Below, one piece after another: positions 8-59,685 of a stretch of DNA of 64,000 nucleotides. The stretch lies in the IMG/VR virus record IMGVR_UViG_3300019458_000022; one strand, given 5' to 3'. Within the stretch, counting starts at the first letter, position 1, and every line of letters starts with the position of its first letter. The notes below the pieces were generated by a model that saw only the letters and a list, made by a program, of their open reading frames with translations, was not told where the DNA came from and ran no database searches. The position numbers were made by a program, and so were the translations under genes. This stretch comes from a virus.

Positions 8-202
8 CTACCTCGCTTCCTTCTTCCGCCACCTGTACTGCCGATCCCTGGCCCGTTTGACGTCGCGCCGTTCCTCCTCCGTCCCCGCCGGAGTCCGGAG
101 GACGCACGCGCAGAGCGGGCCGCAGCACCACTCGAACTTGCAGGTCCCGGGACGCGAGACGCACTGGTAACGGCTCTCCGGGAACCCGCTTCCGCCTGCC
201 AT
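8..202 (-). CDS. small Cys-rich hypothetical protein
   Basis: ATG at 202 just after ligase stop; C-rich (CVSRPGTCKFEWCCGPLCAC), basic tail. Confidence 0.55.
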   Translation of the reverse strand: MAGGSGFPESRYQCVSRPGTCKFEWCCGPLCACVLRTPAGTEEERRDVKRARDRQYRWRKKEAR

Positions 203-204
203 GC

Positions 205-822
205 CTAGCTCTCCACGACCTTTCGGCCTTTTTCGATCCCGTACTTCTCCATCACCCGGTCGATCCACGCCTGGGTCTTGGCCTTGGCCATGACGAGATC
301 GCCCCGGATCTCGGCTTTCCCGACCGCGCCCTCGAACGTGATCCCGTCCACCTGCCCCAAGCGCACGCGCTCGACGAGCCCCCGGGTCCAGTTCATGCGG
401 CCCAGGAACCGGGGGGTCGGCAGGTGCCCGAACAGCTTGACGAAGGTCTTCGGCCCGAGGAGGTCGCCCTTGTTTGGCGCGGCATCGAAGAGAACCAGCT
501 TCTTCGGGTCCCCCGGGACATGCTCCCCGGCGAAGCTCTTCTCCCCGAAGAACTCCACGAAAACGGTCAGCACGTCCCACCGCTCCTTCCGGGCCACCTT
601 CTCGATCCCGCCCGCCAGGGTCTCATGGAAAATCGGGATCGCCGGGCCGAAGACCTCGTCCGTTTCGTCAAAGAGCCGCTCGCGCGTTCCGAACTTCCAC
701 CATCCGCGCTTCCGGGACCACTCGACCCGGAGGTTTGACCCGTCCAGCTTGTCGAAGACGTACGCCTCGAACTCGCGGAACTTCTAGCCTCCGCTCCACG
801 GGATGGACGGGTAGAAAAGCAT
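205..822 (-). pseudogene. RNA ligase-like nucleotidyltransferase (Rnl2-type motifs) with one in-frame TAG at codon 13
   Basis: My translation from ATG 822: MLFYPSIPWSGG*KFREFEAYVFDKLDGSNLR...; motif I KLDGSN, VLFDA, EGAV, MAKAK; TAG at 784-786; in frame with track ORF 205..597. Confidence 0.75.
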
Positions 823-828
823 GGTTTC

Positions 829-1455
829 CTAGCCTTCCGGGCTGATGTCCGTGAACTCCTCGGCCTTTCCGACCTGCTCCTCGGCCCACTCCTCCTTCTT
901 CTCGTCGGCAGCCTCGTCGATCCGCTCCTTCTTCGCGCCGTCGTCCCCGAACTCCTCTCCCTCGATCTCGGCCTGGGCGTCATCCCGGGCCTGGTCCTCG
1001 TCGAACTCCTCCAGGTCCCCGGCCGCGCTCTCTATCTCGTCGGCCTTGGATTCGAGGTTGTCGGCCTTCTCCTCAAGCTCGTCGCAGATCGGCATCCGGT
1101 TCCCGTTCATGCCGCTCTCGACGTTTGCGGCGCTCTCGCGGTACTCCTCGGCGACCTCGCGGATCTGGCCCGCGGCCTCCTCCATCGCGCCCCGCAGGTT
1201 CTCGATCTCGTAGTCCTTCCGGAACGCCTCGATCGCGTCGGAGATCGACTCGCCCGCCTCGTAGCAGCGGGAGAGCTTGTCCGAGTTGGTCAGTTCGCTC
1301 GGGCGCGGGGACGGGCACTCCATGCAGCGGAGGCGCTTCCCGCCGTAGCGGAACTTCCACCAGCGGTAGGGCGCGCCCGCCTGGATCTTCTTCCCGCACT
1401 TGGCGCAGGACCCGGGAGCCTTCCTCGCCTTCTCGACCTTGTTCACGCGGGGCAC
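829..1455 (-). CDS. phage-type hypothetical protein, N-terminal Zn finger and acidic coiled coil
   Basis: CAKC...CMEC, YRWWKFRYGG, E/D-rich helical C-terminus. Confidence 0.8.
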   Translation of the reverse strand: MPRVNKVEKARKAPGSCAKCGKKIQAGAPYRWWKFRYGGKRLRCMECPSPRPSELTNSDKLSRCYEAGESISDAIEAFRKDYEIENLRGAMEEAAGQIREVAEEYRESAANVESGMNGNRMPICDELEEKADNLESKADEIESAAGDLEEFDEDQARDDAQAEIEGEEFGDDGAKKERIDEAADEKKEEWAEEQVGKAEEFTDISPEG

Positions 1456-1471
1456 GTTCGACTCCCTTCCT

Positions 1472-1951
1472 TCATACCGTCTTGACGCCGATCGCCGCGA
1501 GCATATCGGCGCGGTACTCCTCGAACCGGCGGAGCCAGTCCAGGTTCACGCCGGTCTTCTCCGGGGGCATCGTCCAGCCCGTGTTTCTCGCGATGATGAC
1601 GAGCCACTTGGCGCGGCTGTACGTCCGGGCCGCGAGCGTGATCTCGCCTTTCGCCAGGAGCGCCTGCGCGGCCTCGACCAGGAACCTAGTGAACCCGTAG
1701 AGCTTGTCGTGCTCCTCCTGGCTCCGTTCGGCGGTGTGAAGGTTCGAGAACACGAACTGGAAGTAGACGAACTCCCGGTCCTTGTCCGGGTCTCCCGTGA
1801 CCTCCATCTTCGAGATGACGCGCGCCGCCCACGCCTCGGTCTCCCGCCAGTAGGCCCAGGCCCACGGGTCGTTCCGCTTGAGGCTCCGGACGGCTCGCTC
1901 CCGGGCGAACTCGACCAGCCTGGAGAAGCTCGTGACGTCGTCCTTCTTCAT
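1472..1951 (-). CDS. hypothetical protein
   Basis: ATG 1951 overlaps upstream TGA (ATGA); natural composition. Confidence 0.7.
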   Translation of the reverse strand: MKKDDVTSFSRLVEFARERAVRSLKRNDPWAWAYWRETEAWAARVISKMEVTGDPDKDREFVYFQFVFSNLHTAERSQEEHDKLYGFTRFLVEAAQALLAKGEITLAARTYSRAKWLVIIARNTGWTMPPEKTGVNLDWLRRFEEYRADMLAAIGVKTV

Positions 1952-2505
1952 GCGTTCACCGGTCCCCGAAGCGCCTCCATGACCGAAGCCTTGAGCTTGC
2001 CCCGGTAGTTCTTCTCGATCCAGGGCTTCGCGCGCTCCGTCCACGCCGCCCGGAACTCCGGGTTGAGCCAGCGCCGCGCGAACTTCTGGAACGGCAGGAC
2101 GCCCGACCGGTGCTCCTGGGTCGTGAGGAGGAACCGGACGACCGCGCCCGGAACCGCCGCCGTCGTCTGGAAGACGCCGGATGCCGCGACCTTCTTCGTG
2201 ACCGCCTGGCCGACCTTGGCCGCGACGATCGCGTTGAGATGGGCCACCCAGGAGTTCTCGACCCGGGTCTTCCCGAGCGCGCCCCGGAGCGCCTCCTTGA
2301 GGGAGGCCCGCTTGACGTAGACGGCCTCGCCCAGGACCGCGTCCTCCGCGGGCGTGACCTCGCCGTCCGCGATCCGCCGGAGGGCCGTGTAGACCTCCTG
2401 CTCCAGTTCGTCGAAGAAGCCCCGGGGCAGCCGCTCGTCCTGCGCGTGGAACGCCTCGCGCACCGCCGAGCGGTTGACCAGCCGCCGCGTCGCCGTCATC
2501 GTCAT
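1948..2505 (-). CDS. hypothetical protein, first gene after sigma54 promoter 1
   Basis: GGAGGAAGG RBS before ATG 2505. Confidence 0.7.
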   Translation of the reverse strand: MTMTATRRLVNRSAVREAFHAQDERLPRGFFDELEQEVYTALRRIADGEVTPAEDAVLGEAVYVKRASLKEALRGALGKTRVENSWVAHLNAIVAAKVGQAVTKKVAASGVFQTTAAVPGAVVRFLLTTQEHRSGVLPFQKFARRWLNPEFRAAWTERAKPWIEKNYRGKLKASVMEALRGPVNA

Positions 2506-2556
2506 CGTCCTTCCTCCATCCCGAAGCCGTTCAGGTTCGCCATCGGAGGAAGATAG

Positions 2557-2572
2557 TGCAAAACGTGTGCCA
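2557..2572 (-). promoter_or_regulatory. sigma54 -24/-12 promoter 1 (TGGCACACGTTTTGCA)
   Basis: matches TGGCAC-N5-TTGC, GG-N10-GC spacing; intergenic; CTGCCA-N3-CGGCAG at 2614-2628. Confidence 0.85.
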
Positions 2573-2646
2573 CTCTGAGACACGGTTAATTCGCTCGTTT
2601 TCAATGGGTCCGACTGCCATGACGGCAGGACTGCCTGCCGCCTCCG

Positions 2647-4134
2647 TCACCTGATCCTGCGGATCTCCTTCCGGACCCGGCCGAAGTCCTTCGCGCGCCG
2701 CGCGACCGCGTTGAGGAGTTCGGCCTGTTTCGTCGAGAAACGCTCGTTGTGGCTGCGCTCCCACCGGTGCGCGAGTTCGTGCGTGAGCGTGTAGAGCACC
2801 TGATGGGCCGCGACCGAGAACTTCCGGTCGAGCTTGGCGACGTCGATGAGGACGCCCTTGTCGTCGTCGGACCAGTGCGCGTCGTGCGACTTCGAGTCCC
2901 TCATGAGGCCGATGTTCGCGACCTCCAGGTCGGGAAACGCCTCTTCGAGGATCTCGATCGACCGGTCCATGAGGGCGAGGATCTTCCGGAACCGCGCGCT
3001 CTTCTCGGGGTGCCACTCGCGCCGCGGGTTCGTCGAGCGGTCCTCGATGATGACTCCCCGGCAGGGGACCAGGGACTCCAGGAGCCGGTTCATCCTCTCC
3101 TCGGCGCTCTCGACCACGGACTGGATGCCGGAAGTGACGAGCGCCGCCCGGCGGTCGTCCTCCAGGAAGGACTCGGCCAGGTTCTCCTCGACCTCTCTCG
3201 GCTTGGGCGCGACCGGCGCCGACCGCTTGATCTTGCGCTGCTTCAAGTTGTAGGTGAAGCGCTTCTTGACCGGCTGAGGGGGGATCTTGGAGGAGAGGGG
3301 ATTCTCCTGCTCGTACCTCATGCGCTCCCGGAGGCGCCGGAAGGCGTCCTCCAGGCCGGGATTCGCGAGGCGCTCCCGGGCCGGGGTGAAGTCCTTGTAC
3401 GTCGTCCGCTCGAAGTTGACGACGTAGCCGTCCGTGCCCCCGGTCCACTCGTCGAACTGGGGGAGGCCGTTCGAGAGAACGACGATGTGCCCGCGGTACT
3501 CCTGGGGCTTCCGGGCCTTGTAGACGGGGTGGCCGACGATCTCGGAATGGAGCGGCGAGGGCTCCAGGTCGAAGCCGATCTTCTCGCCGTTGAGGAAGAT
3601 CGAGGTCTTGGAGAGCCGCGCGTATGAGAGCATCTCGCTCAGGTGATCCGGGTAGATGTAGCTGTTCGGGTGGTACCGGATGACGAAGGTGACGCCGGGC
3701 TTTTCGGTCGTGGGCTCGTCCTTGAGTTCGGCTCCGCCCAGGATCTCAGCCTGCGTGACCTTGAACTTCCGGCCTTCGGCGACGCTCGTGATCGAGAAGT
3801 CCTTGACCTGTCGGTTGAAGAGGATGATGGCCTTGGCAACGCCGTTCCCGCCGGTCCGATCGCCTTCCTCGTTCGTCTTGGCGCCCAGGCAGAGGAACCG
3901 GTTGAGGAAGACATCCGTGGTCATCCCGCAGCCGTCGTCGGCGAACGTGAGGACCCAGTCCTTGTCCACGGTCGCCTCTCGGACGAGGCCGATCCGGACC
4001 TCCCGCGAGCGGCTGTCCACCGAGTTCTGGAGCATCTCGGTTGCCGACTTGACCAGCTTGTCCCCGGCGTAGAGCCGGTCGGCGTAGGCGCTCCAGACCT
4101 CGCGGGCGTCGATCTTGAGTTCGAGCTTCGGCAT
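2647..4134 (-). CDS. GHKL (HATPase_c/MORC-like) ATPase with C-terminal HExxH zincin-like domain
   Basis: EMLQNSVD, DDGCGM, GGNGVAK Bergerat motifs; THELAHRWERSHNERF. Confidence 0.8.
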   Translation of the reverse strand: MPKLELKIDAREVWSAYADRLYAGDKLVKSATEMLQNSVDSRSREVRIGLVREATVDKDWVLTFADDGCGMTTDVFLNRFLCLGAKTNEEGDRTGGNGVAKAIILFNRQVKDFSITSVAEGRKFKVTQAEILGGAELKDEPTTEKPGVTFVIRYHPNSYIYPDHLSEMLSYARLSKTSIFLNGEKIGFDLEPSPLHSEIVGHPVYKARKPQEYRGHIVVLSNGLPQFDEWTGGTDGYVVNFERTTYKDFTPARERLANPGLEDAFRRLRERMRYEQENPLSSKIPPQPVKKRFTYNLKQRKIKRSAPVAPKPREVEENLAESFLEDDRRAALVTSGIQSVVESAEERMNRLLESLVPCRGVIIEDRSTNPRREWHPEKSARFRKILALMDRSIEILEEAFPDLEVANIGLMRDSKSHDAHWSDDDKGVLIDVAKLDRKFSVAAHQVLYTLTHELAHRWERSHNERFSTKQAELLNAVARRAKDFGRVRKEIRRIR

Positions 4135-4163
4135 CGCCGTCTCCCTAAAGACCCCCTCTCTAC

Positions 4164-4179
4164 CGCAAAACGTGTGCCA
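4164..4179 (-). promoter_or_regulatory. sigma54 promoter 2 (TGGCACACGTTTTGCG)
   Basis: consensus match ~30 bp upstream of GHKL start; CTGCCA/TGACAG/TGGCAG at ~4243-4268. Confidence 0.85.
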
Positions 4180-4281
4180 TACTGGATATCATACACAAAC
4201 CTCAAAATCACGCGAAAAACGAAGGTCGCTCGTGCGGGCGCCCTGCCAGGGGGGTGACAGGATGGCAGCCGGGAACGGGGC

Positions 4282-4617
4282 CTAGCTATCCTTGTCCCGG
4301 GCGCCCTTTCTCTCCTCCACGGCCCTCCGGTGCCAGGCCCGGTTGTTCATGATTTGGTGGAACGTATCGAGGGCGTCCACGGCGATCTTCACGTTGTACA
4401 TCAGCCGGTCCCGGATGCGTTCGAGCGTGACCGGATCGTCGGTATCGTGGTCGTACGGCACCGGCCGGTGATGAAAGGCCCGGTACCGGGACCGGTCCAC
4501 GACGACGATCTCGATCCTGCGATCGCCCTCCTCGTCGCGCCCGAAGGTCTCGCGCGCAAGCGCCTCGACCTGGCGCTGGAAGGTCTCGATCTTCTTCTCG
4601 TCCAGGAGGTCACGCAT
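4282..4617 (-). CDS. hypothetical protein
   Basis: ATG 4617 overlapping upstream gene end. Confidence 0.65.
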   Translation of the reverse strand: MRDLLDEKKIETFQRQVEALARETFGRDEEGDRRIEIVVVDRSRYRAFHHRPVPYDHDTDDPVTLERIRDRLMYNVKIAVDALDTFHQIMNNRAWHRRAVEERKGARDKDS

Positions 4618-4879
4618 CGGTTGTTCCTCCGGCATCCTGGCCGAACGCGCACGCATGGCTTCCCTGCGTCCATCCGCAAAGGCGGCAGCAATCGCCGCGC
4701 CGGTACTCCTCGATCGCCTTCCTCACGTCCGGGTCGTTCAAGGTCGCCTCCTCGTCGAACTCCCCGAGCCATTTCCAGCCCTTCCTCTGGAGCGGATCGA
4801 CGAAGAAGTTCCCGTCCCTCCGTTTGAGAAGGAAGGCGCCGTCCTTGGCCAAAAGATGGGTCTTCGGGTCGTGATGCAT
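4610..4879 (-). CDS. hypothetical protein with C-terminal CxxC...HxC
   Basis: ORF track; packing. Confidence 0.6.
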   Translation of the reverse strand: MHHDPKTHLLAKDGAFLLKRRDGNFFVDPLQRKGWKWLGEFDEEATLNDPDVRKAIEEYRRGDCCRLCGWTQGSHACAFGQDAGGTTDA

Positions 4880-4948
4880 GGGCTTACCCGATCTGTTCCA
4901 GGTGGACGAAGAGGGAGACGTGACGGGTATGGAGGGAGTTCGACATGT

Positions 4949-6394
4949 TTAGGCCCAGCCCTTCTCCCTGAGAAACTCCACGTTCTCCACGGCCGCCATG
5001 AACGCGAGTCCGGAAAGGCGCCCGAACTCCTGGTACCACGACTGGTCGTGGCCGTTCCCCTTCCGATGGGCGAATTCGTGGACGAGTAGATTGACCCAGG
5101 TCGCGGTGTTCCCGCGGGCAAAGAAGCGCTTGCCCACGCGCTTCCGGTTGACGTTGACCTGCCGGAGCACGTCGTTCCAGGTCGCGCAGTACCTGTCCCG
5201 GTCCATGGTGTAGATCTCGACCTCGAACGCGCCGATCGAGAGCTTCCCCCCGAGCCACTGGGCGAACGCCACGAAGTCCTTCTCGTCGTCGGTCCAGTCG
5301 TCTTCGGGAATGGTCTCGGCCTCTCCGAAGGAGGGCGCGAACACCTGGCTCGTGCTCGGCGCATGGGTCCGGACAAGGTCGCGGACGGCGTCCGTCTGGC
5401 CCCGGAGATCGACGAGGGGGAGGCCGTCCTGGACCGCGCGGACGTTGTTGTCCGGGTCCATGGGATTGAGGCGGACGACGTTCTCCCCGAACCGCTTCTT
5501 GACGTAGAGCGCGCCCGCCTTCTCCTTGTCGAAGACGGCGCTTGAGACGGCCTCCTCGACCCACAGCTTCGAGGCATCTTCCCGGCTCATCTTCTCCATC
5601 CGGTGGTTCGCGAGGCACCCGAAGACCTGCCGGAGATACGACCGGGGGACGACGTCCCGTTCCGGCTTGAGCGGGACCCGCTGCTGGACGTCGATGTGGA
5701 ACGGAAAGCCGTCGTCCTTGATCGGCTCGATGGGGATGCCCATCTCGTAGATCCACGGAGTCTCGCCGTTCTGGAGCGAATAGAGCCGGATTTCGGTTTT
5801 CCGGACCCTCTGGACCATGACCTCGTTTTCCACGAAAACCGTGGGAAGGCTGGCCTCGAAGCTGTCGGCGCGCGTGTAGGTCGGGAGCGTAAGCCCCACC
5901 ATCTGGAAATCGAGGCCCGGGGGCGGGATGAAGAGCTTGAGATACCACCGGATGTCCTGCGCGTCCTGCGCCGTCCAGGACGGGATCTCGCAGACGATCA
6001 AGGTCCCGCGCTCGCGCGAGTTGGCCCGAACGGTCCGCTCGAACTCCTTCCGCTTCCACTTGAAGTGGACCGTCTTCCCCACGGTCTCGACAATGACGTC
6101 GTCGGAGACCGCGATCATCTCCTTGAGGCCGCGCCCCATCCGGCCGCGCTTGAGCGGGGAATCCTTCTTGCCGCTCGCGAAGATCGTCCAGATCTCCTTG
6201 GGGTCCTGGAACCCGCGCGGGACTTCGTCCTCGATCGAGATCCTGGTGTAGCCGGGTTCCGACCGGACCTCCAGGATCACGCGCTTGGCGCCCTCCTCGT
6301 CGAAGGCGTTCTGGACGAGTTCCCGGACGAGATGGCCCGGAGGCCGATGGAGGTTCTGCGCCCGGAACGCCCGTTCGTCGATCTCGAAACCCAT
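4949..6394 (-). CDS. second GHKL ATPase with C-terminal HExxH domain
   Basis: ELVQNAFD, IEDEVPRG, GRMGRGLKE; LVHEFAHRKGNGHDQSW. Confidence 0.8.
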   Translation of the reverse strand: MGFEIDERAFRAQNLHRPPGHLVRELVQNAFDEEGAKRVILEVRSEPGYTRISIEDEVPRGFQDPKEIWTIFASGKKDSPLKRGRMGRGLKEMIAVSDDVIVETVGKTVHFKWKRKEFERTVRANSRERGTLIVCEIPSWTAQDAQDIRWYLKLFIPPPGLDFQMVGLTLPTYTRADSFEASLPTVFVENEVMVQRVRKTEIRLYSLQNGETPWIYEMGIPIEPIKDDGFPFHIDVQQRVPLKPERDVVPRSYLRQVFGCLANHRMEKMSREDASKLWVEEAVSSAVFDKEKAGALYVKKRFGENVVRLNPMDPDNNVRAVQDGLPLVDLRGQTDAVRDLVRTHAPSTSQVFAPSFGEAETIPEDDWTDDEKDFVAFAQWLGGKLSIGAFEVEIYTMDRDRYCATWNDVLRQVNVNRKRVGKRFFARGNTATWVNLLVHEFAHRKGNGHDQSWYQEFGRLSGLAFMAAVENVEFLREKGWA

Positions 6395-6399
6395 GGGGT

Positions 6400-6639
6400 C
6401 TACCTCTTCTCCCTCCGGTTCTGCGCGCCCATCGACGAGGCGACGATGAACCAGGCTTCCTTCCGATCGAGTCCGAGTTGCCGGTTGAGTTCGTCCGCTC
6501 GCTCCTTGGCCTGGTCGTAGCGCTCGAACTCGCCTTCCACCTGGACCGGGGTATAGCCCGGGACATCGCGCTCGGCGAGGCCGATCGCGTGCCCGGTCGC
6601 GGTCACGACCGCCGTGAACGCCTTGTTGCCTTTCGACAT
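6400..6639 (-). CDS. hypothetical protein
   Basis: GGGGGAG RBS; packing. Confidence 0.7.
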   Translation of the reverse strand: MSKGNKAFTAVVTATGHAIGLAERDVPGYTPVQVEGEFERYDQAKERADELNRQLGLDRKEAWFIVASSMGAQNRREKR

Positions 6640-6648
6640 GGCTCCCCC

Positions 6649-6888
6649 CTAAAGGATGTTCTTCCCTGCCTCGTCGAGCTTCACGATCTGGAAGCCGCCC
6701 GCGGTCGGCCAGTCGATCCCGATCACGCCCCCGCCCAGGGTCCGGACGTTCTCGGCCAGTTCCCCGGCCGCGCTCACGAGGAGCGCGAGCGCCATCAAGG
6801 GATCGCGTTCGACGCGCTTGGCGGCCTCCTCGACGGACGCCTTGACGCGGGTCCGGACATCGAAGTTGGCGACGTCGTTTCCGTCCAT
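6649..6888 (-). CDS. hypothetical protein
   Basis: AGGAGG RBS. Confidence 0.7.
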   Translation of the reverse strand: MDGNDVANFDVRTRVKASVEEAAKRVERDPLMALALLVSAAGELAENVRTLGGGVIGIDWPTAGGFQIVKLDEAGKNIL

Positions 6889-6899
6889 GGTCTTCCTCC

Positions 6900-7613
6900 T
6901 TAGTCGATGTTCGCCTTGAGCCCGATTTCGCGGGCGATCATGCGCTTGTAGTCCATGGAGAGCCCGGCCGCGTCCGTCACCAGTTCGCAGAGCGCGCGCT
7001 CGTACTCCGGGTTCTCGCCGTCATCGGACTTGAGGTCCGAAGCCAGCTTGACGAGGTCCCTGACGGTGACCTTGCGCGACAGGATCTTGGAGTCGAGGAC
7101 TGACGAGGGGACGTCCACCTTGCCGGTCCGGAGGGACATGCGGACCTCGCAGTTCGAGCAGAAGAGGTACTCCTCTCCGGAGATGAACGCGCGCCGGGCT
7201 TCCTGGAGCGTGGCCTTCCGCGTCCGCTGGCCGTCGTCGCGCGCGTCCTTGGCGCAGTCGGCGCAGAGGAAGATCTTCCGCCTGTCGCTCGTCCAGGCCG
7301 CGTGGATGGCGGGCGCCTTCGGTGACGCCGTCGCGGCCCCGGCCACGATCTCCGGGTAGACGATCAGGTGGTCCCCGTCCTTCACCCCGGCGTCCGGGAG
7401 CGTCTGCGTCTCCTGGAGACGCTTCCCGCCCTCCTTGTGGTCGAGGCTGTAGGACATGGGTGTTCCGTCCGGCGCCGTCACCGGAAGCGTCATCTTCGTG
7501 ATGATGTTCGGGAGGATCTTCGCCACGGTCACGGTCGGCGAGATCTTGGCGCGGACCGACTTCGCGCCGGTCTGGTCGAGGAACGTCACCTGGATGCCCT
7601 GCGGATCGCTCAT
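6900..7613 (-). CDS. ubiquitin-like (EsaB/YukD-type beta-grasp) domain fused to Zn-binding C-terminal domain
   Basis: IQVTFLDQTGAK...KMTLPVTAPDGTPMSYSLDHKEGGKRLQETQTLPDAGVKDGDHLIVYPEIVAG, then CADC...CSNC; AGGAG RBS. Confidence 0.75.
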   Translation of the reverse strand: MSDPQGIQVTFLDQTGAKSVRAKISPTVTVAKILPNIITKMTLPVTAPDGTPMSYSLDHKEGGKRLQETQTLPDAGVKDGDHLIVYPEIVAGAATASPKAPAIHAAWTSDRRKIFLCADCAKDARDDGQRTRKATLQEARRAFISGEEYLFCSNCEVRMSLRTGKVDVPSSVLDSKILSRKVTVRDLVKLASDLKSDDGENPEYERALCELVTDAAGLSMDYKRMIAREIGLKANID

Positions 7614-7816
7614 GCCGGTTTCTCCTTCTTCCTGGCTTCCTGAGCCTTTTCGGCCCGTTCCTTGCATCCGTCGCAGTACGCCTTTCCGCCCCGCATCCAG
7701 CGGGCCGGTTCTTCCTCCCGGTGCGACCGCCCCGTGAATGAGCAGACCCCCTTGAACGCCCACGTCCATCCCGGATTGAAGGCGCTCCCTTCGTAGGGCC
7801 TGAACGCGGCCGTCAT
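7610..7816 (-). CDS. small Zn-finger protein
   Basis: CSFTG...YCDGC; overlaps both neighbours. Confidence 0.6.
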   Translation of the reverse strand: MTAAFRPYEGSAFNPGWTWAFKGVCSFTGRSHREEEPARWMRGGKAYCDGCKERAEKAQEARKKEKPA

Positions 7817-8067
7817 GCGACCACCGCCTTCTCGCGCCGGTACTTCCGCGCGCAGTCTGGACCCAGGGGATATCCGCCCATGTTCCACGGGTGATGCTGG
7901 TGGGCTTCCTCCCCGCCTGCGGGTTCGAACTGGCCGCAGCAGATGAAGACCCACATGGCTTTGTCCTTCTCCTTGATCGGCTTCCCGCAGTAGGCGCAGG
8001 GCCATTCGCTGCCCTTGCAGCGCTCGGCATTCTCATGGAAGCGGGGGCCGGAAAAGGGCGTCATCAT
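7813..8067 (-). CDS. small Zn-finger protein
   Basis: CAYCGKPI...GPDCA. Confidence 0.65.
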   Translation of the reverse strand: MMTPFSGPRFHENAERCKGSEWPCAYCGKPIKEKDKAMWVFICCGQFEPAGGEEAHQHHPWNMGGYPLGPDCARKYRREKAVVA

Positions 8068-8555
8068 GAGAGCGACCTTTCCAGCGTCAGGAGAGCTTCC
8101 CGCTGGCTCCGAAGTTTCGCCAGGGCGTCCTCGGTTTCCGCGATCTTCTCGTCCACGCCGATGATCTCGTTGTTGACGTGCGACCGCTTGGCGGCCTTGA
8201 GGATCTCGGGATGCCCGGCCGCGTACCGGGCCCATGCCTCGGAGAGCACCGAACGGGCCTTTTGGACAGCGGACAGCGTGTAGTCGAACGCCTTGAGCGA
8301 ACCGGCCCGCGACAGGTTGACCTCGTTCGTGCTGTTCGCGTCCCAGGAGCCATCCGCCTTGAGATGCAGGTGGGCTGAGAGATGATACTCCACGCGGTTG
8401 ATGACGACCGGTATCGGGGTCGTCGGGCTCCCGTCTTCGTCGTAACGACGGGACTCCAGGTAGACGTGCGACCCGCTCGTCACCGAGAAATCGACCGGCC
8501 CGATCGACGTCTCAAGGACGCCCTTCGCCGGATTCTGGTGCTTCCGCGCCTTCAT
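8064..8555 (-). CDS. hypothetical protein, C-terminal coiled coil
   Basis: first gene after promoter 3; alternative GTG start 8567. Confidence 0.7.
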   Translation of the reverse strand: MKARKHQNPAKGVLETSIGPVDFSVTSGSHVYLESRRYDEDGSPTTPIPVVINRVEYHLSAHLHLKADGSWDANSTNEVNLSRAGSLKAFDYTLSAVQKARSVLSEAWARYAAGHPEILKAAKRSHVNNEIIGVDEKIAETEDALAKLRSQREALLTLERSLS

Positions 8556-8579
8556 CGTCTCGCTCACGACCTCTCCTAC

Positions 8580-8595
8580 TGCAAAACGTGTGCCA
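8580..8595 (-). promoter_or_regulatory. sigma54 promoter 3 (TGGCACACGTTTTGCA)
   Basis: consensus; TGGCAG-N4-CTGCCA at 8645-8660. Confidence 0.85.
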
Positions 8596-8607
8596 CGCTG
8601 ACACCTA

Positions 8608-8636
8608 TTTATACTCGCCGGAACCGCGGTTGTCAA
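8608..8636 (-). promoter_or_regulatory. sigma70-type promoter in tandem with sigma54 promoter 3
   Basis: TTGACA-N17-TATAAA. Confidence 0.6.
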
Positions 8637-8668
8637 TGCCAATCTGGCAGACGGCTGCCAGCCATTCT

Positions 8669-9301
8669 CTACTTCTTGACCTTGCCCCACACTTCGCGCA
8701 CGACGGCGGGCGGCGCGTCCTTGAGGCGTTCCGGGATCTCGAAGAAGAACACGGCCGTGGGCTCGACCTTGACGTGGCCGCCCACGACCGCGAACCGGAC
8801 GATCTGGCCCTTTTCCCGCTCGTTCAGGTTGTTGACCGCGACCTGCCAGGCTTCCCCGTCCCGGGCCACGAGGACGTGTCCGCGGAGGCCGAAGCTGTTC
8901 CGGTTCGATGAGACGGCCGCGACCTTGAACTCCTTGACCGCGTGCTCGGGCTCGAAGGCTTTGGCCGGGAAGTAGACCTTCCGGGGGTTGAACTCGCGCT
9001 GGTCGGGGTCGATGAGGTCGAGGCCGAGCCGGGCGCCCTTCGCCTCCTTCGCGTGGCCGGTGGTCCCGATCTTCCGGGCGAGCTTCACGTCCTTCTCGTC
9101 GAGAAGCTCTCCGTGGAGCCGGTCGCCGGTCTCGTAGTCGTGGAACCCGTGGGTCACGCGCACCCGGTAGCGACCCGGCGGAAGCCAGTTGGAGCCGCCG
9201 ACGTCGTTCAAGATCATGACGTCCGTGATGTCGCTCAGGCGCTTCCCGCAGGTGACGAACCCGACGAGGCCGACTTCCCGGATCTCGCTCTTCGCGCCCA
9301 T
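8669..9301 (-). CDS. hypothetical protein
   Basis: GGAGGAA RBS, ATG 9301. Confidence 0.7.
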   Translation of the reverse strand: MGAKSEIREVGLVGFVTCGKRLSDITDVMILNDVGGSNWLPPGRYRVRVTHGFHDYETGDRLHGELLDEKDVKLARKIGTTGHAKEAKGARLGLDLIDPDQREFNPRKVYFPAKAFEPEHAVKEFKVAAVSSNRNSFGLRGHVLVARDGEAWQVAVNNLNEREKGQIVRFAVVGGHVKVEPTAVFFFEIPERLKDAPPAVVREVWGKVKK

Positions 9302-9309
9302 GGTTCCTC

Positions 9310-9672
9310 CTAGCCCTTCTTCAAAAGCTCGATCCCGTGGAGCCCGTGGATGTCCAGATACTCCGTACGGATCTCCGCGACCGACGTCGTCCATCGGCCC
9401 ACCCTCCCGCGTTTCAGCCGCCAGGAGAAGGCTTCGGAATGGTCGTGGAGCAGCTTGTCCCCCTGCTTGGCAAAGGCGCCGACCTCGTGGATCGGACGCA
9501 CTTCGGCCGGTCCCGAGAACTTCAGGACGACGAAGTGCGTGTAGCCCAGGCGCTTGGCTTCGGCGAGGACGCCCTCGTAGTTGGTGTACCAGAAGTCGAT
9601 GTACGTGAACCGCTTGTAGCGGATGCCCCGGACGATCTTCTCCTGGGTCTGGCTCCGGTACTGGGTCTTCAT
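9310..9672 (-). CDS. hypothetical protein
   Basis: ATG 9672; aromatic-rich natural composition. Confidence 0.6.
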   Translation of the reverse strand: MKTQYRSQTQEKIVRGIRYKRFTYIDFWYTNYEGVLAEAKRLGYTHFVVLKFSGPAEVRPIHEVGAFAKQGDKLLHDHSEAFSWRLKRGRVGRWTTSVAEIRTEYLDIHGLHGIELLKKG

Positions 9673-9721
9673 CGGGTCTTCGTTCCTTTCGCGGCCTTCT
9701 GGACGAGTTCGACGGCCCCCC

Positions 9722-11428
9722 TCATGCCTGGCCTCCCTCGAACGGAATCCCTTCCTCGCCTCCCCAGAAGTCGCCGTGGCGGTCGCAGCGGCACTTCGGG
9801 CAGACCTCGGTCTTGGGCGCGTTATAGGTCCCGCACCCGTAGCCTCCGCACTTGACGTAGCCCTTGGGGGTCCCGCAGACGTCCTCGACGCCGGGCTCTC
9901 CGGGGCGCGCGACCTTGTTCGTGCAGGTCTTGGCCTTCCGCACGTTGTACTGGAAGCACCTGTTGCACCGCCAGGACTTGAGGTCGTGCCCGCACTCGCA
10001 GACCTTGACCTCGGGCCGGTTGACGTGCGAGCAGGCCAGGCAGCACCAGGAGCCGCGCGCGGTCCCGCAGTGGCAGGTGTCGGCCGGGTTCTCGGAATGG
10101 GGGACGTTCTCGCTGCGGCAACGGTTGTCCGGGCAGAACCAGGTCCCCTCGACCGCGCAGCGCGTGAGGACCGTCTGCTTGATCCCCTTGTACTCGTCAT
10201 GCTTCTTGACCGTGGCCTTGATCTGGTAGGTCTTCCCGACCTCAAGCTCGCCGTTCGTCGCGAACCAGGTCACGACGTTCCCCTTGGGGTCCACCATCTT
10301 GTGGATGTAGGTGACGCCGAACTCGCTCTGCGAGTTGATGACCTTCGTGACCGTCAGCGTGAAGACCTCGCGCGCGCCGACCGTCCCGAAGTGCTCGCTC
10401 TTGGCCTCCCGCTCGTACCGGATCTTCTGCTCGGCCACGAAGCCCATCTCGCGCTTGTAGACGGTGATCAGGCTCGCGGCGATCCCGAAACCCTTCTCGA
10501 CGACCGCGTCCCGGGAGCAGACCGCCACGAGGTTGAACTCGTAGTCGTTCTTCTCGGCCTTCTCGGCGAGGGTCCCGCGGAGCCACGCGAGCGCGTCCTG
10601 GGCGAGCTTCGCGTCCTCGGTCACGGGGACCGGGGGCTGCTCCTTGGCGCCGGGGAAGGGAGTCATCCACGCGAACGCGAGGTCGGCCGTGGCCGACCGC
10701 ATCTCGCCCTCGGGAAGCTGCCGGGCCTTGGACCGGGAGAGCCAGCCCTCGGTCCGGACGGCGAGCGCCACGTAGGAGAGGTAGTCGGCGAGCCAGATCA
10801 CGCGGGCGCCGCCGCCCCATCCAGCGCCCTCGGCCTCGGAGAGGACGTCGCCCACCGACAGGAGGTACTCGGCGGCCTGGAGGATCTGCTCGGGGTCCTG
10901 GTGCCCAAGGAAGTCGGCGATGCACTGCCGTCCGACCTGCTTCCACTCCCCGTTCTCGTTCCGGACGACGAAGGTCTCCTTCCGGCGCCGGAGGTACCCG
11001 CAGTGGTCGCAGGTAGCCTTGGCCTCGCGGTAGGTCTTGGGAAGCTCCTTGCCCGGCACCGCCCGGAGGAGGACAGCCGCGTCGTTCTCGCCGTTGGCGG
11101 CCAGGTGCTGGATCGTGCCCATGAACTCCCACCCGGCGAACTTGGGGGTCCCCCCCTCGATCGAGACCTCGTAGACCACCTTGGTCCGGGTGACGGGCTT
11201 GCCGTCGCCGTCCCGGAGGACGGAGACGCCGTCCGGGTCCAGGTTGTCCCGGACCGGCTCCTCCCGCTTGATGGGCTCGGAGACCTTGAGGACGACCGGC
11301 GGGCAGCCGATCTTGTCCGCCCGCTTCACGAGCGCCAGGATGCGCTCCTGGAGCCGGGGCAGGTTCTCCGCCGGGATCAGGTGGACCTTGGGGTCCTCGG
11401 CCATCTTCGTCTCCGCGTTTGTCAGCAT
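9722..11428 (-). CDS. phage-type protein with OB-fold-like domain and multiple C-terminal Zn ribbons
   Basis: SEHFGTVGAREVF...IKATVKKHDEYKGIKQTVLTRC; WFCPDNRC, WCCLACSHVN, WRCNRCFQYN, CGTYN...CPKC. Confidence 0.75.
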   Translation of the reverse strand: MLTNAETKMAEDPKVHLIPAENLPRLQERILALVKRADKIGCPPVVLKVSEPIKREEPVRDNLDPDGVSVLRDGDGKPVTRTKVVYEVSIEGGTPKFAGWEFMGTIQHLAANGENDAAVLLRAVPGKELPKTYREAKATCDHCGYLRRRKETFVVRNENGEWKQVGRQCIADFLGHQDPEQILQAAEYLLSVGDVLSEAEGAGWGGGARVIWLADYLSYVALAVRTEGWLSRSKARQLPEGEMRSATADLAFAWMTPFPGAKEQPPVPVTEDAKLAQDALAWLRGTLAEKAEKNDYEFNLVAVCSRDAVVEKGFGIAASLITVYKREMGFVAEQKIRYEREAKSEHFGTVGAREVFTLTVTKVINSQSEFGVTYIHKMVDPKGNVVTWFATNGELEVGKTYQIKATVKKHDEYKGIKQTVLTRCAVEGTWFCPDNRCRSENVPHSENPADTCHCGTARGSWCCLACSHVNRPEVKVCECGHDLKSWRCNRCFQYNVRKAKTCTNKVARPGEPGVEDVCGTPKGYVKCGGYGCGTYNAPKTEVCPKCRCDRHGDFWGGEEGIPFEGGQA

Positions 11429-58503: not shown

Positions 58504-58797
58504 TCACTCCGAAAAAATAGCGAGCGTGATCTCGTCCAGCCCGAATCCGACCCGGGCGCCGTTCTCCTGGATGACCCGTTCCAGCATCTTGACGTCGCGG
58601 GTCGTCAGGAGATCGTTCCGGGCGCTCAGGTCGAATCCGTTCCTGCCGTCGAGGAGCCTCACGTCGGCGACTTCAAAGCCGATCTTCCTGAGGTTCTCGC
58701 TGAGTGCGTCTACGAGATTCTGCCGGTTGACGGAACTGTCGAGATCCACGACCCCGATTTCAAGGCGCACCGTCTCCTCCCTTCTTCGCCTTTTCAA
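58504..58797 (-). CDS. hypothetical protein
   Basis: ORF track; start uncertain. Confidence 0.55.
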   Translation of the reverse strand: MKRRRREETVRLEIGVVDLDSSVNRQNLVDALSENLRKIGFEVADVRLLDGRNGFDLSARNDLLTTRDVKMLERVIQENGARVGFGLDEITLAIFSE

Positions 58798-59185
58798 GAA
58801 GCTTCGCGATCGCCTGTGGCGGATCGCTGGCCAGAAGCGTGTTCCCCACCCGCTTCCACCAGGTCTGGTCTTCGGCGTGGAACAGCCGGTCCTCCGGCTT
58901 GTCGAGCACGCAGGATGCGAACGTGAGGATCGCGTCCACGTCTGCGGCCATCGGTTTCTTGGCGTTCCTCGCGGCCCCCTTTTCGAGAGCGGTCAACTTC
59001 CTCCTCAAATCGTCCAGTTCCGTTCTCCAAAGCTGGTTCGTCCGTTCGACGGTTTTGTAGGCGGCCTGCAACGCCTTGAGCTTCCCTTCGTTCTCGGAAC
59101 AGGATTCCCGTAGCTCCTTGTTCTCCTTCTCCAGGCCCTCGATCCTGGCCAGAAGTTCCGATTCCCGGTCGCTTTTGCCGCTCAT
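58760..59185 (-). CDS. coiled-coil hypothetical protein
   Basis: heptad-rich. Confidence 0.65.
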   Translation of the reverse strand: MSGKSDRESELLARIEGLEKENKELRESCSENEGKLKALQAAYKTVERTNQLWRTELDDLRRKLTALEKGAARNAKKPMAADVDAILTFASCVLDKPEDRLFHAEDQTWWKRVGNTLLASDPPQAIAKLLEKAKKGGDGAP

Positions 59186-59685
59186 GCCGACACCTTCCGG
59201 AAGCGTTCAAGGGACTTCGCTTGCGCCACGTAGAGCGGATGCCTCGGATGCCCTTCCTTGGTCGTGCCGAAGCAGTGGAGCTTGATCCCGTGGAGGAGTT
59301 GCAAGACCTCCCGGTCCCGGTTCCGGCAGGCTCCGTGGATACCCCAGGCCGCAACCACGATGTCGGCGCGCCGCGCGGCCTCCAAAATATACCGGTCATT
59401 TTCGGGACCGACCGGATCGCTGTGCTCGTAAAGAGCGTCCGGATCGGTCGAACGAAGCGCGAAGATGTTGACGACTTCGAGGGACCGGTGCCGGAACTTG
59501 TTCATGGAGAACCCGATGCACCTGCGGATGGTCGGGTCGTCGGTCTCGGCCGTCGCCGTGCTCGGGTTAAGGAGGATGAAGACCGTCCTGCCGTCCCCGG
59601 AATCCCATTCGCGGGTCAGGCTGTAGCGGTATTTCTGCGAAGGGTCGAACTTCGCCGTTCCGCGACGGAATAGATCGAGGTTCAC
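59182..59685 (-). CDS. DUF1643 family protein
   Basis: YRYSLTREW, LLNPSTA, DDPTIRRC, VVAAWG, PRHPLY. Confidence 0.85.
   Translation of the reverse strand: MNLDLFRRGTAKFDPSQKYRYSLTREWDSGDGRTVFILLNPSTATAETDDPTIRRCIGFSMNKFRHRSLEVVNIFALRSTDPDALYEHSDPVGPENDRYILEAARRADIVVAAWGIHGACRNRDREVLQLLHGIKLHCFGTTKEGHPRHPLYVAQAKSLERFRKVSA

Follow-up and report, generated by a model that had tools for sequence, protein, structure and literature searches.

A virus-derived stretch of cave-metagenome DNA carries, at positions 6900-7613 on the minus strand, a single open reading frame (ORF) of 237 amino acids (aa) in which a bacterial ubiquitin-like (Ubl) domain and a cargo of 145 aa are encoded in one frame. We confirmed that this in-frame Ubl-cargo fusion gene is real. 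By sequence, its N-terminal domain is a conjugation-type Ubl of the kind encoded in E1/E2/JAB operons of Planctomycetota, and we consider it probable, from comparison of related genes, that the gene encodes a pro-protein that a host JAB peptidase would cut after Gly92, releasing a host-type Ubl and the cargo.

The Ubl domain and its cargo are encoded in one continuous reading frame

We refer to the whole 64,000-nucleotide stretch that was analysed as the window (64 kb). It is part of a cave-metagenome contig of at least 175 kb, nearly all of its genes run in one direction, and most of them have no family match. The Ubl-cargo gene starts with an ATG at 7613, 8 nt after an AAGGAG motif, and this ATG overlaps the stop codon of the upstream small ORF as ATGA (Table 1). 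The frame is formally free of stops further upstream, to 8036; we take 7613 to be the true start because third-position GC (GC3) upstream of it favours two other frames. Within the gene, GC3 stays at 0.90-0.97 over all 237 codons and is unbroken at the Ala-Gly (AG) junction; the 145-aa extension is therefore coding and continues the frame of the Ubl. No stop codon separates the AG from the cargo. Positions 7032-7428, the AG junction included, recur with no differences on a 397-bp contig from a second cave-metagenome study, and the fusion is therefore not a peculiarity of one assembly. An earlier reading made from the sequence alone (the sequence-only reading) had described a Ubl of ~92 aa ending in PEIVAG, in a frame that continues for 145 aa with CxxC pairs, and the ORF, the Pfam match, and GC3 confirm this. 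In the encoded protein, the Ubl (residues 1-92) is followed by a linker predicted to be disordered, then by a module with two CxxC pairs, and finally by a domain of four helices.

Table 1. Features of the Ubl-cargo gene and of the gene block around it
Feature	Position in window	Strand	Evidence
Ubl domain, residues 1-92, YukD-family beta-grasp, ending YPEIVAG	7338..7613	-	Pfam PF08817; identity to operon Ubls
Ala91-Gly92 codons; predicted mature C-terminus and cleavage site (after Gly92)	7338..7343	-	Invariance; end of similarity
Linker, residues 93-112, predicted disordered	7278..7337	-	AlphaFold2 pLDDT; no homologs found
Cys4 zinc-ribbon-like module, residues 113-170; CxxC at 7254-7265 and 7149-7160	7104..7277	-	Sequence, homologs
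C-terminal four-helix domain, residues 175-237, motif GENPEY(D/E)RAL	6903..7091	-	Homologs, AlphaFold2
Next gene, 79 aa, free-standing here	6649..6888	-	Homologs are Ubl cargo in related elements
Small ORF upstream, 68 aa; ATGA overlap couples its translation to that of the Ubl gene	7610..7816	-	Frame-specific GC3; sequence
Sigma54-type -24/-12 motif at the head of the gene block with the Ubl-cargo gene	8581..8595	-	Exact TGGCAC-N5-TTGC
GHKL ATPase and HExxHxxxxxH zincin, 481 aa, same block; context only	4949..6394	-	Pfam HATPase_c; invariant motifs

The gene lies on a likely phage, with no E1, E2, or JAB found in the window

The 568-aa product of a neighbouring gene has homologs in 372 phage records (among those listed, 147-309 kb) and also on IMG/VR contigs of 126-465 kb, and several further window ORFs match PHROGs. 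The element is likely a large phage; we call this likely, not proven, because no virion gene was seen within the window. Two metagenomic loci, L002 and L003, are syntenic to window positions 200-11,400 with protein identities of 43-75%, and the Ubl is the best-conserved segment (85% identity) of the block common to all three. A complete IMG/VR phage of 77.7 kb with terminal repeats (G003) carries a Ubl with a 3-aa tail and has neither a ThiF nor a JAB match. A single-protein scan of viral contigs and a tblastn search of GenBank phages with the Ubl gave no matches. The TGGCAC-N5-TTGC motif found at the head of the gene block occurs six times in the window, against 2.1 expected, always on the minus strand, with the next copy at 4165-4179.

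The sequence-only reading had noted that E1, E2, and JAB are absent from the window. Systematic searches bear this out: tblastn with the host enzymes, as well as profile hidden Markov models (HMMs) made from 73-80 host enzymes and run against all six frames, found none of the three in the 64 kb. The best host-JAB profile match (positions 58763-59206, E = 0.02) is weak and was rejected, as it falls in a coiled-coil ORF that has no JAMM motif. As an orphan without these enzymes, the window Ubl would depend on those of the host.

The N-terminal domain is, by homology, an operon-type Ubl under purifying selection

Residues 8-84 match the Pfam family YukD (PF08817) with E = 3e-14 and 54 bits (cut-off 27), and weaker Pfam matches are to Rad60-SLD (8e-5) and ubiquitin. 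We assigned the beta-grasp fold from Pfam together with weak PDB sequence matches. The latter, obtained with a family profile, are all Ubls but lie below significance (E >= 0.17), so a close relative with a solved structure is absent. A single-sequence fold of the full 237-aa protein has a pLDDT of 38, too low for use.

A word-indexed search returned 124 relatives with 60-86% identity, confined to the first ~90 residues, and all 124 diverge directly past YPE(I/V)(V/T)AG. An alignment of 27 sequences has a mean column identity of 74% and 24 columns without variation, those of Ala91 and Gly92 among them. The window Ubl is 85-93% identical to operon-encoded host Ubls (L004-L016), with the highest value, 93%, reached by its core against locus L005; this upholds the earlier proposal of a bacterial conjugation-type Ubl of E1/E2/JAB operons. 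The nearest host-type Ubls (up to 93% identity) are in metagenome-assembled genomes (MAGs) of uncultured Planctomycetota. For nearly every cargo-bearing copy, the closest host Ubl comes from one group of uncultured Planctomycetota, in which the gene order is E1-Ubl-E2-JAB.

YukD/EsaB of type VII secretion, the best Pfam match of the window Ubl, belongs to the same beta-grasp family. YukD is reportedly not conjugated and sits in ESAT-6 secretion loci (PMC1779556), whereas Ubls of the window type have an invariant AG end and lie in E1/E2/JAB operons (72 of 80 host loci). The window domain is hence not a secretion-type YukD.

To what extent has the element-borne domain been preserved? All positions that are invariant in 79 host Ubls, Lys18, Lys60, Ala91, and Gly92 among them, are kept in 33 element copies. 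Values of dN/dS are 0.03-0.28 between element copies and 0.06-0.12 among hosts. These comparisons indicate that the element-borne Ubl copies are under purifying selection.

The related host operons encode a eukaryote-like conjugation system

We sought relatives of the Ubl in one genome per species and found 316, nearly all labelled Planctomycetota; cultured carriers include Singulisphaera, Tundrisphaera, Paludisphaera, and Tautonia. The sequence-only reading had advised looking for an E1-E2-JAB locus in hosts, and such a locus is indeed there: E2, E1, and JAB all lie within 6 kb of the Ubl in 72 of the 80 loci that were fetched, and E2 is adjacent to it in 79. Pfam identifies the three enzymes as UQ_con, ThiF, and JAB. 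In Singulisphaera acidiphila, Pfam further identifies, upstream, a membrane protein with Prok-RING_1 and, downstream, a peptidase of the M48 family. In a Planctomycetaceae MAG, a gene for a Ubl-E2 fusion immediately precedes those for a ThiF-type E1 and a JAB peptidase; the E2 has the motif HPN...Cys and the JAB the motif HxH-x10-D. A Ubl match at E <= 1e-10 was present in 35 of 301 sampled Planctomycetota genomes (about 12%), and the system is therefore widespread but patchy. Eukaryote-like Ubl/E1/E2/JAB operons, some including a RING E3 and others not, have been noted in silico, with Planctomycetes, Acidobacteria, Actinobacteria, and Caldiarchaeum among the lineages named (PMC4197634), and planctomycete E2s are credited to Arcas et al. 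2013 in PMC8382908.

The sequence-only reading had started from the premise of a Bil-type system. This premise found no support in PADLOC, which reported neither BilA nor BilB and gave the Ubl and the group-A E2 no match at all; the host enzymes drew generic E1-E2 and JAB matches, and the single Bil component to appear was a weak BilD match (1e-6). Host operons, that of Singulisphaera included, sit amid ordinary chromosomal genes. Taken together, the host system is of a eukaryote-like RING/E2/E1/JAB type that has no defence signature and is not Bil or Bub. Because of this, and of the ordinary chromosomal setting, the terms "anti-phage defence" and "host defence protease" in the sequence-only reading are assumptions.

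The Ala-Gly terminus marks the mature end of the Ubl

The motif PE(I/V)(V/T)AG occupies residues 87-92 of the window protein. The host Ubl ORF stops directly after AG in 36 loci; in most other host loci it ends 1-9 residues past AG (RR, RG, RS, SC, GC, etc.), and some loci encode Ubl-E2 fusions. Since host ORFs end at AG, in a short tail, or in an E2, AG is the mature end and trimming is routine, in keeping with the earlier view of PEIVAG as the mature terminus of the family. A 901-aa open frame around the host Ubl in G027 was set aside, as it consists of upstream stop-free high-GC sequence, and the tail of this Ubl is 9 aa. Tails begin with A, R, G, S, C, M, or one of a few other residues, and 0 of 94 begin with Pro; as these tails are not independent, the absence of Pro straight past AG is only suggestive. 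The PE(I/V)(V/T)AG tail is flexible and lies outside the fold core; that it stays constant although the sequence behind it is unrelated would be difficult to understand if its binding enzymes no longer read it.

Bil (BilABCD) and Bub (BubAB/BubCD) systems also have a Ubl with a conserved C-terminal Gly, which a JAB there exposes by cutting linear fusions (Ubl-GFP, Ubl-E2). The BilC JAB cuts a BilA-GFP fusion after the conserved Gly (doi 10.1101/2023.09.26.559546), and the BubCD JAB cuts a Ubl-E2 pre-protein after Gly229 (PMC11601596). The present system differs from both in that PADLOC does not match it to BilA or BilB, the E2 of the host is of the UQ_con type with HPN...Cys, the host operon has no defence-island context, and the window cargo is not an E2.

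The cargo combines a putative zinc module with a widespread helical domain

The CxxC pairs of the cargo are at residues 117-120 and 152-155, and the Cys4 module that they form is predicted to bind zinc. The cargo (residues 93-237) belongs to no family in Pfam, PHROG, or PADLOC. A word-indexed search with the cargo returned P0002 only. An exhaustive HMMER search with the same residues gave 120 representative clusters, all but two of which match the last ~60 residues only, and no homolog of the linker (residues 93-112) was found in the cargo search. Matches to the GENPEY(D/E)RAL domain are mostly free-standing proteins of 54-150 aa, together with two giant proteins that have several copies of the domain. 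Two proteins without a Ubl contain both modules: P0129 (127 aa) is collinear with the entire cargo (E = 3e-21), and P0142 has the modules in swapped order with the same four Cys (E = 8e-7 for the zinc module). The free-standing cargo homologs that were checked, of both kinds, sit in small-ORF arrays.

An AlphaFold2 model of the cargo, built from 87 sequences, shows residues 96-112 as disordered (pLDDT <50), the zinc region with moderate confidence (pLDDT 59-73), and a C-terminal four-helix bundle with very high confidence (pLDDT 91-98). Foldseek found no match to this model in the PDB at E <= 0.001, matches in the ESM Atlas had TM scores of at most 0.36, and the best Z of 4.4 in a wide VIA-align search is generic for helical domains. 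We considered an IBR domain, suggested by a few Atlas clusters, and rejected it: the TM scores of 0.27-0.30 are too weak, there are four Cys only, and there is no Pfam IBR match.

Unrelated proteins follow the Ubl in related elements

The window, L002, and L003 have different content after the Ubl at the same genomic position: a zinc module and a helical domain in the window, a helical domain alone in L002, and in L003 a linker and a homolog of the free-standing window gene at 6649-6888. The product of this window gene is also 54% identical to the post-AG part of P0006 (E = 5e-26).

Tails of at least 30 residues among 106 AG-motif matches fall into 31 clusters, and at least 12 of these look like real, unrelated cargo families. 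The clusters include E2 (23 proteins), a 74-aa family (8 proteins), a two-helix membrane protein (7 proteins), a 170-aa helical family (4 proteins), several Cys-rich proteins, and a homolog of the C-terminal half of window ORF 8669-9394 (P0034). Others are Arg/Pro-rich, occur on host-type proteins, and resemble read-through or frameshifted E2. We inspected seven cargo-bearing contexts; all seven are dense one-directional small-ORF arrays with no called E1, E2, or JAB, and several have phage-type genes (Mom, RNase T, DNA methylases, Phage_ABA_S, DnaB, Cpn10, and DUF5131). Several Ubl cargoes are also found as free-standing genes.

A proposed pro-protein cut by the host JAB, and its alternatives

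Our explanation is that a phage of Planctomycetota carries a ubiquitin-fusion-type pro-protein, residues 1-92 of which would copy a conjugatable host Ubl. The usual task of the host JAB would be to remove a short tail or a fused E2 from the host Ubl; it would also recognise the Ubl of the phage, with its invariant PE(I/V)(V/T)AG tail, and cut after Gly92. Two products would result: a Ubl with a free C-terminal Gly, open to activation by E1 and E2 of the host, and the 145-aa cargo, with its flexible linker, Cys4 zinc module, and four-helix domain. In this way, phages of this group could fuse almost any downstream gene to the Ubl. If cleavage is indifferent to the sequence past the Gly, an in-frame fusion with the next gene would be tolerated, and many unrelated cargoes would result; such tolerance would in turn let the cargo vary between otherwise syntenic phages and the same small proteins occur both fused and free. 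What we observed is the homology, the link to host operons, a junction that does not vary, diverse cargoes, cargo homologs that stand free, and a lack of E1, E2, and JAB on the phage side; we infer the cleavage, that host enzymes use the released Ubl, and a benefit to the phage. This benefit is a conjecture; the presence of the Ubl alone in some phages suggests that the modifier itself is useful to them. The sequence-only reading had named a ubiquitin-fusion-style pro-protein as one of two possibilities, and the comparative data favour it.

Many eukaryotic proteins keep uncleaved N-terminal Ubl domains, and fusion alone therefore does not imply processing. The window Ubl might instead be a permanent adaptor that docks its cargo on Ubl-binding host proteins (E1, E2, RING, JAB, or unknown readers) and so mimics a linear conjugate. 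The conserved surface of the Ubl would suit this role. An adaptor would, however, leave several observations unaccounted for: the tail, although flexible and outside the fold core, is invariant in 33 of 33 element copies, similarity stops exactly at the Gly, the same cargoes function without a Ubl, and some phages have a Ubl with a mere 3-aa tail. Unrelated cargoes, the two-helix membrane protein included, would also need identical docking. We hold an uncleaved adaptor to be unlikely.

The other possibility raised by the sequence-only reading was a decoy for the host E1 or JAB. More generally, the fusion could counter a Ubl-based anti-phage system of the host, either by occupying or poisoning E1/JAB or by delivering an inhibitory cargo, and the faithful mimicry of the host Ubl would fit such a role. 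Bil-type Ubl conjugation is antiviral (doi 10.1101/2023.09.04.556158), but PADLOC does not class the host operon as Bil or Bub, and it is found amid ordinary chromosomal genes. Nothing specific speaks for a decoy, since each residue that is invariant in hosts, the scissile AG included, is retained in the element copies: neither the cleavage site nor the lysines nor any other invariant position is consistently altered in a way that would make them dominant-negative. The varied cargoes argue against a single inhibitory mechanism as well. A decoy or inhibitor thus seems to us less likely still.

Could the pro-protein be cut by an enzyme of the phage itself, with no need for the host JAB? The candidates are two conserved GHKL-ATPase/HExxHxxxxxH zincins encoded in the same block, at 4949-6394 and 2647-4134, the genes of which, like the Ubl gene, are syntenic in the window, L002, and L003. 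In the one listed in Table 1, residues E25/N29/D32 and H439/E440/H443/H449 are invariant in 55 homologs. WLM peptidases are tied to ubiquitin/SUMO pathways in eukaryotes, and the zincin has a weak WLM-like Pfam match; however, at E = 0.001 this match is below the cut-off, the family has more than 300 homologs, and the gene tables of other Ubl-cargo contexts (L097, L098, and L099) and of G003 have no such neighbour. Cleavage by a phage zincin is hence improbable. Finally, that the gene is a mis-assembled or mis-called fusion of a Ubl gene with the next gene is hardly credible, for although the source is a metagenome assembly and many host-type matches with Arg/Pro-rich tails of 35-60 aa resemble read-through or frameshift, the stop-free stretch from AG to cargo, GC3 of at least 0.9 across the junction, the identical junction in the second study, and analogous fusions on dozens of independent contigs all speak against it.

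Relation to known ubiquitin fusions and implications

Set beside the Ubl/UQ_con E2/ThiF E1/JAB operons, the window Ubl is of the same family, with up to 93% identity and the same AG end, but it is an orphan on a phage-like element, has no E1, E2, JAB, or RING, and is followed by a 145-aa cargo past its Gly. Eukaryotic ubiquitin-fusion genes encode ubiquitin joined to eL40 or eS31, or polyubiquitin with a one-residue tail, and deubiquitinases cut after the terminal Gly. The window gene resembles them in having a conserved modifier N-terminal to a small, partly zinc-binding protein or a short tail. It has the layout of the ubiquitin-fusion class, an N-terminal modifier with an unrelated protein of a free-standing type directly past Gly92, and differs in being phage or bacterial, in ending in AG and not GG, in its diverse non-ribosomal cargoes, and in that its processing is putative. 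Among viruses of eukaryotes, baculoviruses have v-ubi, and cytopathic pestiviruses have ubiquitin insertions, after which a host hydrolase cuts and thereby processes the viral protein. There, as in the window, a virus has a copy of a host modifier, and the window would be the bacteriophage case. In a bacterial virus, the Ubl-cargo gene seems to be the equivalent of the ubiquitin fusions that eukaryotes and eukaryotic viruses encode.

The type of host operon, the pre-processing of bacterial Ubls by JAB, and ubiquitin-fusion genes are already known. In the openly searchable literature, including the Bil/Bub papers and a comparative review of jumbo phages, we found no description of a phage-borne conjugatable bacterial Ubl or of a diverse-cargo fusion.

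We regard it as possible, though somewhat doubtful, that phages of Planctomycetota systematically exploit the ubiquitin system of their hosts, with the Ubl both as a universal self-removing leader for a range of unrelated phage products, in the manner of a polyprotein and dependent on the host JAB, and as an extra modifier that reprograms the E1/E2/RING cascade. If this is true, viral ubiquitin genes would for the first time have an equivalent in bacteriophages. The fusion would also define a natural cleavable leader, as predicted here, with a sharply defined junction, and it flags at least 12 small phage families, including the widespread unnamed GENPEY(D/E)RAL helical domain, as made simultaneously with a modifier. 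What a phage gains from supplying the modifier may point to the role of the planctomycete ubiquitin-like system. Viral ubiquitin and ubiquitin fusions are commonly regarded as typical of the cell biology and virology of eukaryotes; if the window protein is processed as proposed, viral ubiquitin and ubiquitin-fusion pro-proteins would not be confined to eukaryotes, and such fusions would be at work in the interplay of phages with bacteria that possess a RING/E2/E1/JAB system.

A Ubl gene in a complete phage genome

The complete phage genome IMGVR_UViG_3300033233_000027 (G003; 77.7 kb, direct terminal repeats, 54% GC) encodes a Ubl in which AG is followed by a 3-residue tail, VVI. We found no match to ThiF or JAB anywhere in this genome.

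Features of the window, the G003 Ubl locus (L084) and a planctomycete host locus (L064)
Feature	Location	Strand	Description
TGGCACACGTTTTGC, exact copies	window 2558, 4165, 8581, 11441, 24149	-	sequence match
TGGCACACGTTTTGC, variant	window 20534	-	sequence match, 1 mismatch
GHKL-zincin protein 1	window 4949-6394	-	~490 aa, paralog of 2647-4134
GHKL-zincin protein 2	window 2647-4134	-	~490 aa, paralog of 4949-6394
Four-helix domain, motif GENPEY(D/E)RAL	window 6903-7091	-	~60 aa, relatives P0122-P0240
241-aa protein	window 8669-9394	-	C-terminal half = cargo of P0034
568-aa protein	window 9722-11428	-	C-terminal third Cys-rich; homologs in phage records
G003 Ubl gene	L084 9965-10264		99 aa, 76% identical to window Ubl
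Ubl-E2-E1-JAB and flanking genes	L064 4876-11476		Singulisphaera acidiphila DSM 18658

Genomic neighborhood of the window Ubl

Copies of TGGCACACGTTTTGC, a sigma54-type -24/-12 element, all lie on the minus strand and partition the window's left third into blocks of genes; five identical copies and one variant were observed versus 2.1 expected by chance. Both GHKL-zincin paralogs, which join an N-terminal GHKL ATPase to a C-terminal HExxHxxxxxH zincin, keep their synteny with the Ubl gene at two metagenomic loci (L002 and L003). Among 55 homologs, E25, N29, and D32 of the GHKL part and H439, E440, H443, and H449 of the zincin part are invariant. This family has >300 metagenome members of very uniform length and carries no name.

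Homologs of the 568-aa protein occur in 372 GenBank phage records (147-309 kb for the records listed); in one of these, from Tunturiibacter phage Tunturi_5, the annotation of the aligned region reads "RecT-like ssDNA annealing protein."

Cargo domains and apparent cargo

The four-helix domain of the window cargo is present in 120 representative clusters, mainly as tiny stand-alone proteins within small-ORF arrays, while giant proteins of 2225 and 6519 aa each contain 4-6 copies. The domain is unnamed: Pfam and PHROG have no family for it, and fold searches returned no informative match. The post-AG cargo of P0034, another Ubl fusion, corresponds to part of the 241-aa protein, a second window gene with Ubl-fused relatives elsewhere.

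Many host-type Ubl gene calls (P0017, P0025-P0027, and P0032-P0048) end in Arg/Pro-rich tails, 35-270 aa long, with the appearance of translation running out of frame into the E2 gene. Such tails probably reflect frameshifts in the assembly or in gene calling of high-GC DNA, and they inflate the apparent count of cargo types.

A host operon in a culturable planctomycete

In Singulisphaera acidiphila DSM 18658, the Ubl-E2-E1-JAB genes lie between the gene of a Prok-RING_1 finger membrane protein, upstream, and that of an M48 (CAAX-protease-like) peptidase, downstream, and the JAB bears a long extension (coiled-coil and membrane). These features make this culturable planctomycete a tractable model for the host Ubl system.
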